Shown here one piece after another: positions 4,538 to 19,022 of a DNA stretch of 52,086 nt. Origin of the DNA: a virus. Lineage: Duplodnaviria; Heunggongvirae; Uroviricota; Caudoviricetes. The translations under genes and the position numbers were made by a program. The stretch lies in the IMG/VR virus record IMGVR_UViG_2698536618_000020; one strand, 5' to 3'. A model generated the notes under the pieces. It had not been told where the DNA came from. It saw only the letters and a program-made list of their open reading frames with translations, and ran no database searches. Numbering within the stretch: the stretch's first letter is position 1; every line of letters begins with the position of its first letter.

Positions 4538-4924
4538 TCAGTGGAAGGTTGCCTGGTTTGCTGTTTTGTGAGTTGTTTTTCCCTTTTCGTGCTGGCATTC
4601 AGGGCAGTCGCACTCAGAATTTTCTCTTGCAAACTCAAGAGCCTGTGCAAGTGTATGGATTTGTTGTACTCCAATGTTGCTTCTGACAACTTCACGTGCA
4701 GCATGAATATATGGGCTTGGTGTTTTGCCATTTAACCCACATAAAACAAAACGACTGTCCTTATATTCGTTATTTCCAACTTCTGTAAGCACTGAAAAAG
4801 AAAATACAAAGTCGATTTTGTATTCTTTGCATATTTTACTGATGCGTTCTGCAATTTCTTTGAGTTCATTTATTGCATCAGGACTGGTTTTGGAAAATAT
4901 TTCATTTTGCGCAAGTTCTTTCAT
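4538..4924 (-). CDS. hypothetical protein, AT-rich moron, C-terminal Cys cluster (CDCPECQHE)
   Basis: 128-aa ORF in visibly AT-rich DNA; same strand as PL operon. Confidence 0.5.
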   Translation of the reverse strand: MKELAQNEIFSKTSPDAINELKEIAERISKICKEYKIDFVFSFSVLTEVGNNEYKDSRFVLCGLNGKTPSPYIHAAREVVRSNIGVQQIHTLAQALEFARENSECDCPECQHEKGKTTHKTANQATFH

Positions 4925-5007
4925 TTTGATTTTTCCGTGATTGATAATTAATGCGGTTTTATTTCGGCTTGTCTGTTACAGATATGGAAGGTGTATTTTA
5001 TTACTCG

Positions 5008-5229
5008 TCACAACGACGCTGCTTTTACGGGTAAGCCATCGCGCCCGATGAAAACTTTAATCATGCAGTCGGTAATGCATGTTTTTGTTGTGAAGTTACG
5101 AATATAGAGTTTTCTCTTTTCAATATTGTTTGCTGAAGCGATATATGTCCGACCTTCATGAAGAACATAATCGCCAGGCGTCACGCACTGACGTGGTATT
5201 TCATCAGTTCCGAAGTGATGAGCAATCAT
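5008..5229 (-). CDS. hypothetical small protein
   Basis: 73-aa ORF from ATG with GGAG 6 nt upstream (longer GTG-start version ends 5247); AT-rich. Confidence 0.4.
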
Positions 5230-5402
5230 AATTATCTCCATTTTCACAAATGAACTTTGTTGATGCGGTGCCTGGTGCCTCCAGGTGACGTTAACCAGTT
5301 AACAACTAACGCCGGGTCAGGGGACGATGACTTTCCGTGACATCCTGTCGGTTTAACTGTTCCGCGTGCGCATAGCCGCATTCACCGCATCACAAAATTC
5401 AC

Positions 5403-5446
5403 TTTAAAAAGGGCGGACATCAGCAATCGGCAAACCGATGTCCGCC
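5403..5446 (-). terminator. intrinsic terminator within leftward early operon (tL-like)
   Basis: 10-bp perfect stem GGCGGACATC/GATGTCCGCC (5412-5421/5437-5446), followed on minus strand by TTTTTAAAG. Confidence 0.55.
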
Positions 5447-5685
5447 AAGGGCTACACACAGCAATGTTGTTATTCACAACCGGAAGCGCACGGTCGAAGA
5501 AATCTAACGACAAGCCTTCAATGGGTAAGAGTCTTCGCCGTGCACTTTCGTGTTGTACCCTGGCTTTCAGGGTAATGTCTGTTCAGTAAACTGAGAGTGC
5601 CGGAACTCACCCGTGTCCGGCGCACGATCTCCACCTCACCCGTGGAGAACTCCTCAACTACAAACCCCGTAAGGAGAGTGAATTT

Positions 5686-5895
5686 ATGACACAAGAAGAA
5701 AAAGTGATGTTTCTGATGCGGCTGGCTGTCGATACCTACAACACACAATTCAGGGAGAAAGATATACCTCAAAAGGCAGTTCCTGCCGCGGTAGATAAGG
5801 GCGGTGCTATTGCCGTATTTTACGATGCATTTGAATCATTTTTTGATGAAAAACTCGACGCTGTTAGCGACTTCGGAACATCGAGTAATAAATAA
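5686..5895 (+). CDS. hypothetical small protein encoded opposite to the PL operon
   Basis: 69-aa ORF, strong SD AAGGAGAG 7 nt upstream of ATG; 3' end overlaps 3' end of convergent minus-strand gene. Confidence 0.45.
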   Translation: MTQEEKVMFLMRLAVDTYNTQFREKDIPQKAVPAAVDKGGAIAVFYDAFESFFDEKLDAVSDFGTSSNK

Positions 5896-6223
5896 CGTTC
5901 ATTACGGTTCTTAAACAACAATCAGTGGGTTTGATGTTGTTCTTTTCAAGCTCACTTGCCATCACTTCCATTATTCTTGCACTTACACGAATTATTTGGT
6001 GGCTGTAAGCGACGCAACTGTCGCTGATATTGCTGTTTATTTCTATTACTTCATTTTCACTGGCGGCGCTAAATTTGGATATGCCGTTTCCATTGTCCTG
6101 TTTCAGTGCTTTTTCTGCCATCTGGATGCGTGTCAGCGTTGCGGAATTTGGGCTAAGTCGATAAACCTGTCTGGCATCTTCCAGAAGCAGGGCGATAATG
6201 TGCTTCAGTTCTGTTTCATTCAT
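5864..6223 (-). CDS. hypothetical early protein
   Basis: 119-aa ORF from ATG (MNETELKH...) with GGAG 6 nt upstream; longer frame extends to 6244. Confidence 0.45.
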   Translation of the reverse strand: MNETELKHIIALLLEDARQVYRLSPNSATLTRIQMAEKALKQDNGNGISKFSAASENEVIEINSNISDSCVAYSHQIIRVSARIMEVMASELEKNNIKPTDCCLRTVMNVIYYSMFRSR

Positions 6224-6254
6224 AGTTAACTCCGGTAGTTGCAATTTATTAATA

Positions 6255-6440
6255 TCAGGCGGTCAGCTCTTTAAGCTTCTGAACTGCTTTATTCATTTCA
6301 TCCATACAGTCGATGAATTCGTCCAGTTTAAGCTGCATTTTTCCGGCGGCCTGAAGAATTTCAAGTTTTAAGGGCGCAAGTTTTTTGTTGTAATCGACGC
6401 AGGTTATTAACTCGCGGCCAGTAATATTTTGGCTTGGCAC
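6255..6440 (-). CDS. hypothetical small protein (GTG start), amphipathic helical
   Basis: 61-aa ORF; overlaps next upstream ORF by about 80 bp, so one of the two may be shorter or spurious. Confidence 0.3.
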   Translation of the reverse strand: MPSQNITGRELITCVDYNKKLAPLKLEILQAAGKMQLKLDEFIDCMDEMNKAVQKLKELTA

Positions 6441-6650: not shown

Positions 6651-6956
6651 TCAATCGTAATAAGCCGGAATTGATTTTCCGCGTTGTTTCTGGCGGCCTG
6701 AGCAAGTCACACCCATTTCACTGCGTGGTTTGCGGTAGTAAATACGGTTCTGTTTACTCTCGACTTCTTCTGCCTTCTTGCAGCGAAGGCTTCCGAGTGA
6801 TACTGCTTTGTCTGCTCCGACGCAACCAGAGATCTTTAGCGCAATCTTCCGTGTCAGTCTTTCACTACTGCGCCGCTCTGCAATAAGTTCTTCCCTGCGA
6901 GCTTTATAGCGGCTTTTTGCCGTACCTTTGGATTCTTTCCAGATTATGGTTACCAT
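6651..6956 (-). CDS. N: N-like transcription antitermination protein
   Basis: 101 aa from ATG with AAGGAGA SD; N-terminal arginine-rich motif (GTAKSRYKARREELIAERR); C-terminus 'RIYYRKPRSEMGVTCSGRQKQRGKSIP' matches lambda N 'RTWYSKPGERGITCSGRQKIKGKSIP'. Confidence 0.85.
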   Translation of the reverse strand: MVTIIWKESKGTAKSRYKARREELIAERRSSERLTRKIALKISGCVGADKAVSLGSLRCKKAEEVESKQNRIYYRKPRSEMGVTCSGRQKQRGKSIPAYYD

Positions 6957-7066
6957 GATGGTCTCCTTTAAGTGGCTTTGGTGTATGACGCGTCGAGGTG
7001 TTTTTCTTCTCGATCGCGGCCTTGCAACTGAAATTCGCGTCATCCCCAAAACCACTTAGATTTTGG

Positions 7067-7108
7067 TCTCAACGGTTAGGTTGAGAGTCCATCAATGTTA
7101 AAGAGCCG
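7067..7108 (-). promoter_or_regulatory. nutL candidate (boxA + boxB hairpin)
   Basis: minus-strand boxA-like GGCTCTTTAAC (7098-7108) then boxB hairpin TCTCAACCTAACCGTTGAGA (7067-7086) in the N leader. Confidence 0.6.
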
Positions 7109-7663: not shown

Positions 7664-8371
7664 TTACCAGCTATGTGATGACCAGAACACTCGCCCTATG
7701 ATTCTTACGTTTTTGTAGAATTCTTCTCTGTTCATTACTTCATCAGGATACTCTTCGCGGTTTATCGATCTGATAATTACCGATGTTGGCGTGGCTATGA
7801 GCGTTTTTACCCTTAACAAATCAGCTTGGCAAATTGCATATGTTTTACCATCCCTGATGCTCGTATCTTGCGTGTTTACCCCCACCACATCACCATCATG
7901 GAGTGTTGGCTCCATGCTTTGCCCAACAACCCTGACCAACTTTGCCGCTTTTTCTGGAACTCCCATTTTTTTCAGGTAATAGCGCCTAAAAACTAGAGAG
8001 AATTCTGCGGACTCCTCCAATGCACAACTTCCTCCGCCAGCTGAAAGTGAAATATTTAGAAGGGGGAGCGCAACAAATTCGTCATTATCATTTTGATGAT
8101 CATCCCAGGCGATAGCTTTTAAAGATGATTCCCGAGCATTAGATGGCTCTTCTGCGCTCTGTGGTCTCATTGACCCTATACCAGAGCTTAGCCATTCAGG
8201 GCGAACTCTTAACGCGTTGGCTAATTCGACCATTTTACGTGATCCGGTTGTTTTACCAGATGACATCTTTTGTATGGCTGGTTGTGATACCCCCACCATG
8301 TCTGCAAGTTGTGCTTGTGACAACCCGGCTGAACTCATGGCGGCATTTAGTCTTTCTGCGAATGTTTTCAT
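7664..8371 (-). CDS. cI: CI-type prophage repressor (HTH_XRE N-domain + LexA/S24 peptidase C-domain)
   Basis: 235 aa; N-terminal HTH (LSQAQLADMVGVSQPAIQKM), Ala-Gly cleavage region (LSAGGG), S24 motifs GQSMEPTL and K in '...LLRVKTLI...'; divergent from cro. Confidence 0.92.
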   Translation of the reverse strand: MKTFAERLNAAMSSAGLSQAQLADMVGVSQPAIQKMSSGKTTGSRKMVELANALRVRPEWLSSGIGSMRPQSAEEPSNARESSLKAIAWDDHQNDNDEFVALPLLNISLSAGGGSCALEESAEFSLVFRRYYLKKMGVPEKAAKLVRVVGQSMEPTLHDGDVVGVNTQDTSIRDGKTYAICQADLLRVKTLIATPTSVIIRSINREEYPDEVMNREEFYKNVRIIGRVFWSSHSW

Positions 8372-8713: not shown

Positions 8714-8754
8714 CGCTCTTTAACATTGCTGGTCGTTCACCTCTAACAGGGTGA
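8714..8754 (+). promoter_or_regulatory. nutR candidate (boxA CGCTCTTTA + boxB hairpin)
   Basis: boxA-like CGCTCTTTA (8714-8722) followed by hairpin TCACC-tctaacag-GGTGA (8737-8754) between cro and cII. Confidence 0.55.
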
Positions 8755-8822
8755 GCAAACATCAGTGGCAAACCCATTGGGGATTGCCGCTTAACCCCAT
8801 ATCAATATAGGAAAATTAACAA

Positions 8823-13270: not shown

Positions 13271-13515
13271 ATTCATTACGATATGGGAATTCCCATATCG
13301 GGTAAAAACGGTTTGCGGTAAAGCGAGAGTTAAGTAGAATTGCTGCGGGTGCTTGAGGCTGTCTGCCTCGGGCATGCCACCGTAAGGCAGACAGAGAAAA
13401 GCCCCAGTTAACATTACGCGTCCTGCAAGACGCCTAACATTAATCTGAGGCCAATTTCATGCTAGACACATGTAGGTTAGCCTCTTACGCGCCGAAAGGC
13501 AAGGAGAAGCAGGCT

Positions 13516-13671
13516 ATGAAGCAGCAAAAGGCGATGTTAGTCGCCCTGATCGTCATCTGTATTACCGTCATTGTGACGGCACTGGTAACGAGGAAAGACC
13601 TCTGCGAGGTACGAATCCGAACCGGCCAGACGGAGGTCACTGTCTTCACAGCTTACGAACCTGAGGAGTAA
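13516..13671 (+). CDS. hok: Hok/Gef-family type I toxin
   Basis: 51 aa 'MKQQKAMLVALIVICITVIVTALVTRKDLCEVRIRTGQTEVTVFTAYEPEE', matches E. coli HokD/RelF as I recall it; AAGGAGAAG SD; longer in-frame upstream ORF (13459) is Mok-like. Confidence 0.85.
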   Translation: MKQQKAMLVALIVICITVIVTALVTRKDLCEVRIRTGQTEVTVFTAYEPEE

Positions 13672-15294: not shown

Positions 15295-15638
15295 TTTTTG
15301 TTCCGTTATTAATGTATAACACATAGTGTTACATTGCGTAGGGATCTGCAATGCCATCAGTTTGACAACGTCGCGTATCCGGGATTATATTCATCGCACG
15401 CCAGCAAAATCTGGCGTCGGGATTAGGAACCCCGGATAGAAACCGCGACAGAGACACGCCGCGAGCGTGTTTTTTATTGTCGTATGCACACGCACATCTG
15501 AATTATGGTGGGGCGTATAGGGGAGCTGAAAAGCTCGCCGGTTGGTTTCCCGGTAGTTCCTAACCCTGTACGTCTCGCCACCCGATGATTAGGAACCTGA
15601 CGGTGGTGATAGTTTAGAAACCACTCGAGGGCGTCATT

Positions 15639-17636: not shown

Positions 17637-17830
17637 TGAATGCTAAAATTCAAACGATACCTGAATTACTGATCTGCACCAGGGGAAATCAGACAGAAGT
17701 CGCCAGAATACTGAACTGCAATCGTGCTACAGTCAGAAAATACATTGATGATAAAGATGCGAAAAAGCACGCCGTCGTCAATGGCGTCCTTATGGTTCAT
17801 CGCGGATGGGGTAAAGATACTGATGCGTGA
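17633..17830 (+). CDS. ninH: NinH
   Basis: 65 aa; '[42 protein letters not shown]' matches lambda NinH. Confidence 0.8.
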
Positions 17831-18257
17831 TATCCGGCAGGTTCTTGAGCGCTGGGGGGCATGGGCGGTAAATAACTATGAGGATGTTACATGGTCGCCC
17901 ATTGCTGCCGGATTTAAGGGACTGATCCCCGAAAAAGTAAAATCACGTCCACAGTGCTGTGACGATGATGCGATGGTGATATGCGGGTGCATAGCCCGCC
18001 TTTACCGGAACAATCGCGATCTGCATGACTTGCTGGTTGATTACTACGTGTTGGGGGAGACGTTCATGGCGCTGGCACGGAAACATGGGTGCTCTGACAC
18101 CTGTATAGGTAAACGCCTTCACAAAGCGGAGGGGATTGTTGAAGGCATGCTGATGATGCTGGGAGTGAGGCTTGAGATGGATCGGTATGTTGAGCGTGAA
18201 TTGCCGGGAGGGAGAAGCTCTGTATTTTATCAGCGAAAAAATAGTTTACGATCGTAA
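17823..18257 (+). CDS. Q: late antiterminator Q (933W/Q21-like type, not lambda Q type)
   Basis: 144 aa from ATG overlapping ninH stop; '[24 protein letters not shown]...[16 protein letters not shown]' as recalled for Q of Stx-phage type; last gene before late leader. Confidence 0.75.
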
Positions 18258-18537: not shown

Positions 18538-19022
18538 GTATCCGTTCAACGGGAATGTTACATACCTCACAATTAAGTCAGTTGAATGTTGTCTGCCCGG
18601 ATGAGAATTTGTTAGAAAAAACTGCATGGTGAATCCCCCTGAGCGGAGGGGCGACTGGTGACGGTATAATCTCTGATTATCAAAACGAGAATGACGCGGG
18701 TTTAGTGGCACCGGGCTGAACTCACCGGGAGGCACCCGGCACCATGCAATGGCACATAGCGCCACTCTCCAGCCCCTCTCCGGAGGGGCTTTCTTATGGA
18801 CAAAAAAGCCCGCGCTGGGAGACGCGGGCGGCAAGGAATGAACAATGAAACGTGAAGTAATATTTCAGCTGGCGAATAATACCCCATAGTAATCACTCTG
18901 CGCAACTGCGCGACCTTTTTCGAATTGCGGGCTGTAGTCTCCCTTCTGCCATTGTCCTGTAACTTCCGGACTTCAGCCCGCTCCTTATTTTACTCACAAT
19001 ATTATCCCGGCCGGGAGGATTC

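Follow-up and report, generated by a model that had tools for sequence, protein, structure and literature searches.

A predicted RNA leader, conserved among lambdoid prophages, precedes apparently swappable small genes antisense in the early-left operon

A plus-strand cassette opposite a minus-strand small RNA

Positions 5403-5895 of the viral record IMGVR_UViG_2698536618_000020 (52,086 nucleotides (nt); this whole stretch is called the window) lie in the early-left operon of what gene content and sequence comparison identify as a lambdoid prophage, and two elements occupy them on opposite strands: a minus-strand small RNA and a plus-strand accessory-gene cassette (Table 1). We think it probable, if not securely so, that the cassette is a self-contained accessory gene placed antisense in the operon, with a structured leader that masks its ribosome-binding site (RBS) and a cargo that can be swapped. 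This reading is built on the sequences themselves, their conservation and covariation, selection on the coding frame and the diversity of the cargo. A first-pass annotation made from the letters of the window had suggested a regulated antisense-oriented moron or an RNA element, and both suggestions are supported by a conserved open reading frame (ORF), a conserved structured leader and a KilS-type terminator.

A three-hairpin leader with covarying pairs

The plus-strand leader of about 88 nt (5599-5685) is predicted to fold into three hairpins, with z scores of -2.25 to -3.4 in four representatives. The twin hairpins of the first-pass annotation are present in both the minimum-energy (MFE) and centroid folds, hairpin 2 being one pair longer than had been drawn (5628-5648 rather than 5629-5647), and they are predicted on either strand. 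A third hairpin (5650-5676) had been missed; it pairs an anti-Shine-Dalgarno (anti-SD) stretch with the core of the Shine-Dalgarno (SD) sequence. Across an alignment of 37 leaders, the hairpin-1 stem is nearly invariant (97% of cells paired), and the hairpin-3 helix is paired in 90% of cells, one of its pairs (58-81) being U-A in 18 leaders and A-U in another 18. The anti-SD of hairpin 3 reads CUCCU in the window and CUCCAUU in other leader types.

The loop of hairpin 1 carries a second anti-SD hexamer, the partner of which is the 3' half of the SD and the start of the spacer. This complement is perfect (6/6 Watson-Crick) in 30 of 38 unique leaders and occurs in three states, UCACCC/GGGUGA (11 leaders), UUACCC/GGGUAA (4) and UUAUCC/GGAUAA (15). 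Two-sided changes were found at pair 11-89 (UA in 19 leaders, CG in 18) and at pair 13-87 (CG in 21, UA in 15). The calculated duplex energies are -11.1 kcal/mol for type A, -8.8 for type C, -6.8 for type B and -6.6 for the window. Hairpin 3 and the loop-SD helix abut on the SD and would jointly cover about 11 nt (5672-5681 and a shared G). Over the whole alignment 89% of cells are paired, and the covariation score of 0.208 compares with 0.083 in shuffled alignments (0 of 500 reach it) and with at most 0.109 when the partners are slid. The first-pass annotation had allowed that no structure might be conserved here, which the three-hairpin leader and its covarying pairs across 37 leaders contradict.

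Hairpin 2 behaves differently among relatives. Its stem is kept through C-G to U-A changes (in one lineage) and C-G to U-G changes, and type-B leaders carry an unrelated hairpin in its place, found in both orientations. The type-B versions in loci L017 and L047 are exact reverse complements of those in L056, L079 and L086 (CACACGTGACAGCGTGTTG and CAACACGCTGTCACGTGTG), and this hairpin appears to have been inverted in place. The 10-mer CTCACCCGTG, reported earlier from both twin hairpins, does occur in each of them (5606-5615 and 5635-5644) and nowhere else in the window. A second exact copy so close, 29 nt away, is far beyond chance; with one mismatch allowed, 4 copies were counted window-wide against 3.3 expected. 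The pair did not prove to be conserved: identity of the two is particular to this copy, and in relatives the loop of hairpin 2 reads CUGACCC, CUAACCC, CUUACCC and others, or the whole hairpin is of unrelated sequence. Since the sequence of hairpin 2 is free among relatives, the repeated 10-mer is not a conserved feature.

A predicted promoter and a conserved small gene

A weak sigma-70 promoter is predicted directly upstream of the leader. A -10-like hexamer lies 5-7 nt before the (G)CCGG of hairpin 1 in seven of eight sampled upstream contexts, against a background of 0.017 per position. It reads TAAACT in the window, in the Qin-type locus L010, in K-12 (L003) and in L036, TAAGCT in phage phi367 and L072, and TATTTT in L172, and promoter-like sequences were found in L019 (TTGAGA-17-GATAAT), L200 (TGGTATTAT) and L090 (TGTTAACAT). 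In the 37 aligned leaders CCGG is preceded by G (32) or A (5), as would suit a purine at +1. From the spacing of the hexamer, transcription is therefore predicted to start near G5599, which would put hairpin 1 at the very 5' end. The equivalent position in MG1655 (NC_000913.3) is at about 1,649,130-1,649,133 on the minus strand, where Shinhara et al. list no small RNA.

The strong SD and the 69-amino-acid (aa) plus-strand ORF named by the first-pass annotation are both there, with AAGGAG at 5671-5676, 9 nt before the ATG, and the ORF is convergent with the next minus-strand gene, as had been stated, overlapping its 3' end by 32 nt. A near-identical RefSeq genome annotates the ORF as WP_000189936.1. 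The earlier judgement that the gap holds no convincing minus-strand ORF also stands, the single candidate (84 aa, TTG start, 5518-5772) being unannotated in the same near-identical genome. The 69-aa protein matches PHROG 2605 over residues 1-69 of 69 (E 1.5e-45). Its homologues are few and all enterobacterial, among them proteins of 68 aa (60% identity) and 63 aa (46% identity). The genes of these 46-60% homologues occupy the same slot, where they converge on the next early-left gene and overlap it, in related kilR-type as well as in Qin-like dicB-type prophages. The ratio of non-synonymous to synonymous rates (dN/dS, Nei-Gojobori) is 0.35-0.44, indicating purifying selection, and in codons 1-15 (MTQEEKVMFLMRLAV, an invariant N-terminus) all differences, 2-5 in number, are synonymous, so that what is conserved is the protein and not only the DNA. 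By these comparisons the ORF is a real, conserved gene, contrary to the possibility, raised with the first-pass annotation, that related prophages would lack it.

Homology searches gave no function for the product, which had no PADLOC match. Pfam returned no family at E <= 0.1, so that SieB homology in particular was not found in that search (69 aa against 162 aa for Rac SieB). The AlphaFold2 model has a mean predicted local distance difference test score (pLDDT) of 62.7 and contains two helices (residues 3-22 and 40-65), a confidence too low for a fold search.

Spread of the leader and exchange of its cargo

The leader is widespread. The block 5475-5666 and the ydfC-dicF spacer of the Qin prophage share about 80% identity, and 4109 of 5426 complete E. 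coli genomes (about three quarters) contain homologous sequence. Scanning viral contigs for the hairpin-1 pattern gave at least 120 loci. Among the matches listed together with the loci from earlier comparisons, an SD and then an ORF of 30 aa or more follow 71 of 137 leader copies, and the distance from CCGG to the start codon is 81-92 nt. The ORFs behind the leader belong to at least 15 unrelated families of 57-101 aa, including PHROGs 2605, 4987, 10348, 18692, 4274, 8894, 7249 and 20080, none of which has an assigned function. Because the same ~88 nt precede at least 15 unrelated small ORFs, the locus appears to be a swappable cargo slot, with the leader as a common front end. Pfam, PHROGs and PADLOC gave no cargo function, apart from one borderline GhoS match of a 94-aa cargo (21.2 bits against a cut-off of 21), and none of 10 cargo proteins matched a PADLOC-DB 2.0 profile at E <= 0.01.

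The remaining copies among the 137, including that of K-12 Qin, are truncated just before the SD. In K-12 Qin (L003 2063-2257; MG1655 1,649,062-1,649,256) the predicted promoter and hairpins 1 and 2 lie opposite the ydfC-dicF untranslated region, and this orphan cassette could drive antisense transcription into ydfC. As the leader is kept without cargo, its sequence may therefore also matter otherwise, through antisense transcription into the toxic dicBF/kil operon or through a role in the minus-strand RNA; the orphan copies thus suggest an additional role, possibly of the antisense kind.

The module also occurs in unrelated flanks, in phi367, L019, Edwardsiella and other species. In phi367 the homologous stretch begins some 12 nt ahead of hairpin 1 and ends at the SD, behind which a different plus-strand ORF follows, and a few further copies were found in E. 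albertii, Edwardsiella ictaluri and other assemblies; the cross-species pattern scan was swamped by GC-rich chance matches, with about eight relevant loci among the matches listed. In L172 (Edwardsiella ictaluri), L200 and L247, a type C leader (UUACCC/GGGUAA) heads a two-gene unit, in which a proline-rich ORF of 30-36 aa precedes the gene of a conserved 156-aa protein that is hydrophobic in its central region; Pfam and PADLOC matched neither product. The Edwardsiella cassette diverges from its neighbours and is not antisense within an operon. In Rac, sieB stands in the slot held here by the 69-aa ORF, KilS is present and the hairpins are absent.

A covariance model of the leader finds one copy in the window (86.8 bits; next best 13 bits). 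The Rfam search proposed for this region returned sub-threshold DicF, STnc100 and RprA matches on the minus strand and nothing on the plus-strand leader, where Rfam 15 gave no match within 5599-5685 at E <= 10 (permissive search of 4900-6300) and none at the gathering threshold in the whole window. The searched literature contains no description of the leader and no printed hairpin-1 sequence. The leader is apparently an undescribed structured RNA.

The convergent early-left gene is a mosaic, in the window as in many other loci (e.g. L011 4170-4775). It has conserved modules at its N-terminus (MEFKDLP... and/or ...ELKHIIALLLEDA...), fused to C-termini that vary from prophage to prophage, and neighbour C-terminus and cargo family associate one to one. 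The 119-aa protein of the window and a 201-aa protein of Qin-like prophages with the same cargo family are alike only at the C-terminus, where the last 36 residues of the former show 53% identity (E 7e-11). Cargo and neighbour C-terminus could form a cognate protein pair; they could equally be held together by simple linkage, since the two reading frames overlap. In L091, a 57-aa cargo has replaced most of a 92-aa cargo, leaving the last ~55 nt of the old ORF where it overlaps the neighbour's C-terminus, and the new cargo has its own terminator-like hairpin (GGGCC...GGCCC, then a short T-run). We read this locus as a likely snapshot of cargo exchange. The cargo was replaced alone and the old 3' remnant was kept, which favours linkage. 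A bolder proposal, which we regard as a long shot, is that leader, cargo and neighbour C-terminal module form a polymorphic two-protein system. A small protein made from a translationally gated mRNA would be matched to the C-terminus of its own early protein and would neutralise that protein's leaky expression, or the protein of a superinfecting relative, as an immunity- or exclusion-like pair; the leader, with a hairpin 2 that is like the boxB of this phage (see below), would be the switch that releases translation on infection.

A KilS-like small RNA on the minus strand

On the minus strand, the perfect 10-bp inverted repeat of GGCGGACATC (5412-5421) and GATGTCCGCC (5437-5446) grows into a 13-bp stem followed by C and UUUUU (dG -25.7 kcal/mol, z -5.3 against shuffles). 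The earlier reading of this repeat as a minus-strand terminator was correct, and a small RNA of the KilS/DicF type ends in this terminator. The element 5406-5497 aligns end to end with MG1655 kilS (b4833) and occupies the corresponding position, its end some 175 nt upstream of kil/kilR, with a GGCGG...CCGCCC-UUUUU terminator as in DicF. It matches Rfam DicF (RF00039) at 5411-5460 on the minus strand with 29.5 bits (E 4.7e-4), below the gathering score of 48 bits. Like DicF, it is a small RNA with a Rho-independent terminator in the early-left operon, upstream of the conserved kil/dicB leader. KilS of the Rac prophage was verified by northern blot in K-12 as an Hfq-associated RNA of ~98 nt (Bar et al. 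2021, PMC8175672).

The 5' target-pairing sequence of DicF (UUUCUGGUGACGUUUGG) is not present, and the aligned 5' part of the window element reads CAUUGCUGUGUGUAGCCCUUGG; because this part differs, DicF targets such as ftsZ cannot be assumed. With Rac KilS the element has full-length homology and the position upstream of kilR in common, and with Qin DicF the terminator and the place in the operon, not the 5' pairing region. From these alignments we assign it to the KilS lineage as a homologue of KilS and a relative of DicF. The likeness covers the minus-strand part of the finding and not the hairpins. The early-left (pL) transcript would end, or pause, at this terminator.

Two observations concern the surroundings of this RNA. 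It has ATTGCTGTGTGTAG in common with E. coli RprA (L259), and ATTGCUGUGUGUAG adjoins the terminator on its 5' side in each of the two RNAs; for the Rac and L005 copies the stretch in common with RprA is 16-17 nt. We did not adopt a relationship with RprA, as the Rfam RprA match (29.7 bits, E 0.46) is not significant alone and the characterised RprA seed lies outside the common stretch (PMC5861431). Furthermore, a long hairpin at 5481-5550, between the small RNA and the predicted plus-strand promoter and overlapping the 5' end of the KilS homologue, has conserved arms (CGGAAGCGCACGG and CCGTGCRCTTTCG) around a central 35-45 nt that are wholly different between prophages.

Genome context

Between positions 5200 and 5900 the window shares 99.9% identity with a prophage of E. 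coli O104:H4 strain FDAARGOS_349 and 99.4% with phage PhiR5_2. On the minus strand, the early-left operon runs from the repressor and N through several small genes, including the 119-aa gene, to the region described here and kil, and continues past kil with a 128-aa gene, RecE, Gam and Bet (Table 1). K-12 Qin has the order ydfABC, long untranslated spacer, dicF, conserved leader, dicB.

Table 1. Features of the cassette, the small RNA and their neighbours (positions in the window)
Feature	Position	Strand	Details
Predicted weak sigma-70 promoter	5564-5592	+	CTTTCA 5564-5569, 17-nt spacer, TAAACT 5587-5592
Hairpin 1, loop with anti-SD hexamer UCACCC (5607-5612)	5599-5621	+	Stem GCCGGA/TCCGGC
Hairpin 2, UCUCCAC / CUCACCC / GUGGAGA	5628-5648	+	Stem TCTCCAC/GTGGAGA
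Hairpin 3, anti-SD CUCCU (5650-5654) with SD core AGGAG (5672-5676)	5650-5676	+	Predicted in MFE and centroid folds
3' half of SD and start of spacer, GAGUGA, partner of hairpin-1 loop	5676-5681	+	One mismatch, A5677 opposite C5611
69-aa cargo ORF, RefSeq WP_000189936.1	5686-5895	+	PHROG 2605 (no function assigned)
KilS-like (DicF-type) small RNA, end of early-left transcript (predicted)	5406-5497	-	Stem 5412-5446, U-run 5406-5410
Structured leader of kil, STnc100-like	5215-5409	-	Rfam STnc100 31 bits; fold z -4.25
kil (KilR-type inhibitor of FtsZ), next minus-strand gene	5008-5229	-	PHROG 294, E 8e-36; kil in RefSeq annotation
Convergent early-left gene, 119 aa	5864-6223	-	PHROG 2982; last 32 nt overlap the 69-aa ORF
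phi21-type N protein, early-left operon	6651-7055	-	PHROG 271
LexA-type repressor, early-left operon	7664-8371	-

The structured leader of kil adjoins the plus-strand cassette and is not part of it. Of 5426 E. coli genomes, 4616 keep this element of ~190 nt in front of kilR or dicB; its score against STnc100 (RF02076) stays below the gathering threshold of 47 bits. A full STnc100 copy (165 bits) lies at 18596-18801 (+), directly after the Q-like antiterminator gene (17724-18257), and has the motif GGUGAAU...CACCNGGAGGCACCNGGCACC in common with the kil leader. Above-threshold Rfam matches on the plus strand were sok antitoxin RNA (117 bits, 13347-13521), isrK (69 bits, 15398-15475) and C4 antisense RNA (66 bits, 15501-15585), which suggest that this prophage has a hok/sok-like module and, besides, a control region of the isrK/C4 type (anti-Q or ant-like).

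Weighing the explanations

We rate the leader as a probable cis-acting translational leader on a prophage accessory gene, and on the predicted structures it would work as follows. The weak promoter (-10 TAAACT) would start a transcript near G5599, and the mRNA would begin with hairpin 1; a 5'-terminal stem-loop is known to protect mRNA from 5'-end-dependent decay (a finding attributed to Emory, Bouvet & Belasco in 1992). The ~88-nt leader would fold into its three hairpins, hairpin 3 pairing CUCCU with AGGAG and the hairpin-1 loop UCACCC pairing with the adjoining SD 3' half and spacer (GGGUGA in most relatives). Both helices would then mask the whole RBS in a pseudoknot-like fold, and translation of the 69-aa protein would be low or conditional on opening of the fold. 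In the window copy the single mismatch would weaken the loop-SD helix, and masking would probably be leakier. We infer where transcription begins, that the RBS is masked, that the gene is expressed in the lysogen and whatever role the cargo may have. The leader was assigned to the plus strand because it stands at a fixed distance from plus-strand start codons, because promoter-like hexamers precede it and because some copies are not antisense in an operon.

Several results weigh against this account. Eight leaders, the window group (GAGUGA) among them, have one mismatch between loop and SD (5/6), and in the commonest fold of type A the hairpin-1 loop has only 6 nt, so that the six-base distant pairing needs the top of the stem to open. 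The covarying states represent only about three leader lineages, and the shuffle statistics therefore overstate independence. Watson-Crick covariation is symmetric, which makes the same helices possible in a minus-strand transcript; the plus strand is on average only 1.1 kcal/mol more stable than the minus strand, and 8 G-U cells were counted against 18 A-C cells on an alignment that is imperfect in places. The -35 of the window (CTTTCA) is poor, with a 3/6 match, and a consensus promoter scan did not call the 5564-5592 site. Neither folding nor the consensus scan found a plus-strand terminator after the 69-aa ORF. Finally, thousands of genomes, with K-12 Qin among them, keep the leader with SD and cargo deleted.

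The strand symmetry and the orphan copies would suit hairpins that act in the minus-strand early-left transcript, as a spacer upstream of the KilS/DicF RNA (for example an RNase E/III processing platform or a folding insulator), with plus-strand ORFs merely inserted alongside. The block 5475-5666 is indeed the ydfC-dicF spacer of Qin and is conserved in most complete E. coli genomes, hairpins 1 and 2 survive in K-12-type copies that have no plus-strand ORF, folding is about equally good on the two strands, and DicF is released from its long untranslated spacer by termination, RNase E and RNase III (PMC5069750, PMC9438474). We nevertheless hold a minus-strand role to be unlikely as the main explanation. 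In unrelated flanks the module lacks the Qin spacer and yet has the plus-strand SD and ORF at a fixed distance, and the hairpin-1 loop covaries with the ribosome-binding region of the plus-strand gene. The divergent Edwardsiella cassette does not lie antisense inside an operon, and Rac has KilS without the hairpins, which are thus not needed for this class of small RNA.

A module working mainly as DNA, that is, as a homology anchor or a palindromic protein-binding site for cargo swapping with incidental RNA folding, would account for the conserved flanks on both sides of the variable block (the leader and the N-terminal modules of the convergent gene), for the cargo replacement in L091, bounded by the leader and by the 3' remnant of the old cargo, and for the exact inverse complements of type-B hairpin 2, a DNA-level event. 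A homology anchor, however, needs no hairpins, no fixed distance to a start codon and no compensatory change between loop and SD, and the two palindromes have different half-sites, unlike repeated operators. We judge this alternative quite unlikely as a replacement for the translational leader; the two are compatible and do not exclude each other.

Hairpin 2 could also be a boxB-like site, at which phage N supplied by induction or superinfection would bind the cargo leader and alter its translation or stability. The phage has a phi21-type N, 17 of 20 positions of its nutL boxB (UCUCAAC-CUAACC-GUUGAGA, 7067-7086, minus strand) are identical in hairpin 2 with one stem difference compensatory, and the hairpin-1 loop/SD helix UCACC/GGUGA equals the stem of the nutR boxB (8736-8757). 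Against this stand the lack of a boxA before hairpin 2 (the single boxA-like match in the window is at nutR), a loop one base longer than that of the nutL boxB, a third loop position that takes all four bases among relatives while other positions vary too, and the unrelated hairpin 2 of type-B leaders in both orientations. Qin-like prophages with the same hairpin show no N among the called genes of their loci, and the likeness was noticed after the fact, with an estimated chance probability of ~1e-3. Loci having both a hairpin-2 type and nut sites of the resident phage were too few for a link between them. N binding to the cargo leader is thus very unlikely in our estimate, and the likenesses to boxB and to the nutR stem could reflect chance, common origin or N binding. 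The twin hairpins were also considered as minus-strand boxB sites for N and rejected, since nutL and nutR proper were found, and boxB loops differ from those of the minus strand (GGGUGAG).

That the hairpins and the repeat have no function and hitch-hike by recent common descent among E. coli prophages seems the least credible explanation: most copies are 80-100% identical and most stems never vary, but the module is retained where flanks and cargo are unrelated and in different genera (E. albertii, Edwardsiella), and its paired positions change compensatorily while hairpin-2 loops and spacer vary freely.

Comparison with known systems and implications

Under the translational-leader account, the cassette resembles the morons of lambdoid phages, reportedly treated by Juhala et al. 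in 2000, and the sieB slot of lambda, P22 and Rac, where a small opposite-strand gene likewise sits in the early-left operon between the N-side genes and kil. The ORF varies as a moron does, K-12 Qin being without it, Rac having sieB instead and other prophages other ORFs. Of a moron's own signals, a terminator was not found after the ORF, and a promoter is suggested by the -10-like hexamer in seven of eight contexts, with a weak -35 and no call by the scan. The protein is not SieB (no Pfam match). A conserved structured leader common to many unrelated cargo genes is a feature of this slot that we did not find described for morons in the searched literature.

Leaders that sequester the SD include RNA thermometers (ROSE, fourU), the lambda cIII mRNA switch and the 5' untranslated regions of type I toxins (tisB, zorO). 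In these an upstream anti-SD pairs with the SD and translation needs opening of the fold, as we propose by analogy for the present leader, which has no sequence or Rfam match to them (Lambda_thermo included) and combines a local anti-SD hairpin with a distant 5'-terminal hairpin loop. Pairing between a hairpin loop and a distant stretch beside the RBS is known from the pseudoknots of repZ (IncI-alpha plasmids), repA (IncB plasmids) and the T4 gene 32 leader, and would occur here likewise. The plasmid pseudoknots activate translation and are blocked by antisense RNA, whereas the pairing proposed here covers the SD and spacer and should by analogy inhibit. The slot also recalls the P2/P4 hotspots, in which conserved flanks surround a block of alternating, unrelated accessory genes (Rousset et al. 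2022, PMC9122126). It differs in holding single small ORFs (57-101 aa) without a match to known defence, and its conserved flank is a predicted regulatory RNA leader rather than a core phage gene.

The main interest lies in the common structured leader and the swappable slot more than in the single 69-aa gene. If the proposed reading is true, the leader would be a widespread cis-regulatory RNA, absent from Rfam 15 and the searched literature, in most complete E. coli genomes and often in several copies. Its mechanism would be simple, with a 5'-terminal hairpin loop and a local anti-SD jointly masking the RBS. It would mark a previously unflagged hotspot where at least 15 small-protein families alternate, in the slot that holds sieB in Rac, and it could be used as a search handle to harvest more cargo genes, whose products would be candidates for roles in the lysogen, for example exclusion, defence or modulation of the host. 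In K-12, the "long untranslated region" of dicBF would hold a remnant of the cassette on its opposite strand, and this remnant may supply antisense transcription into a toxic operon.

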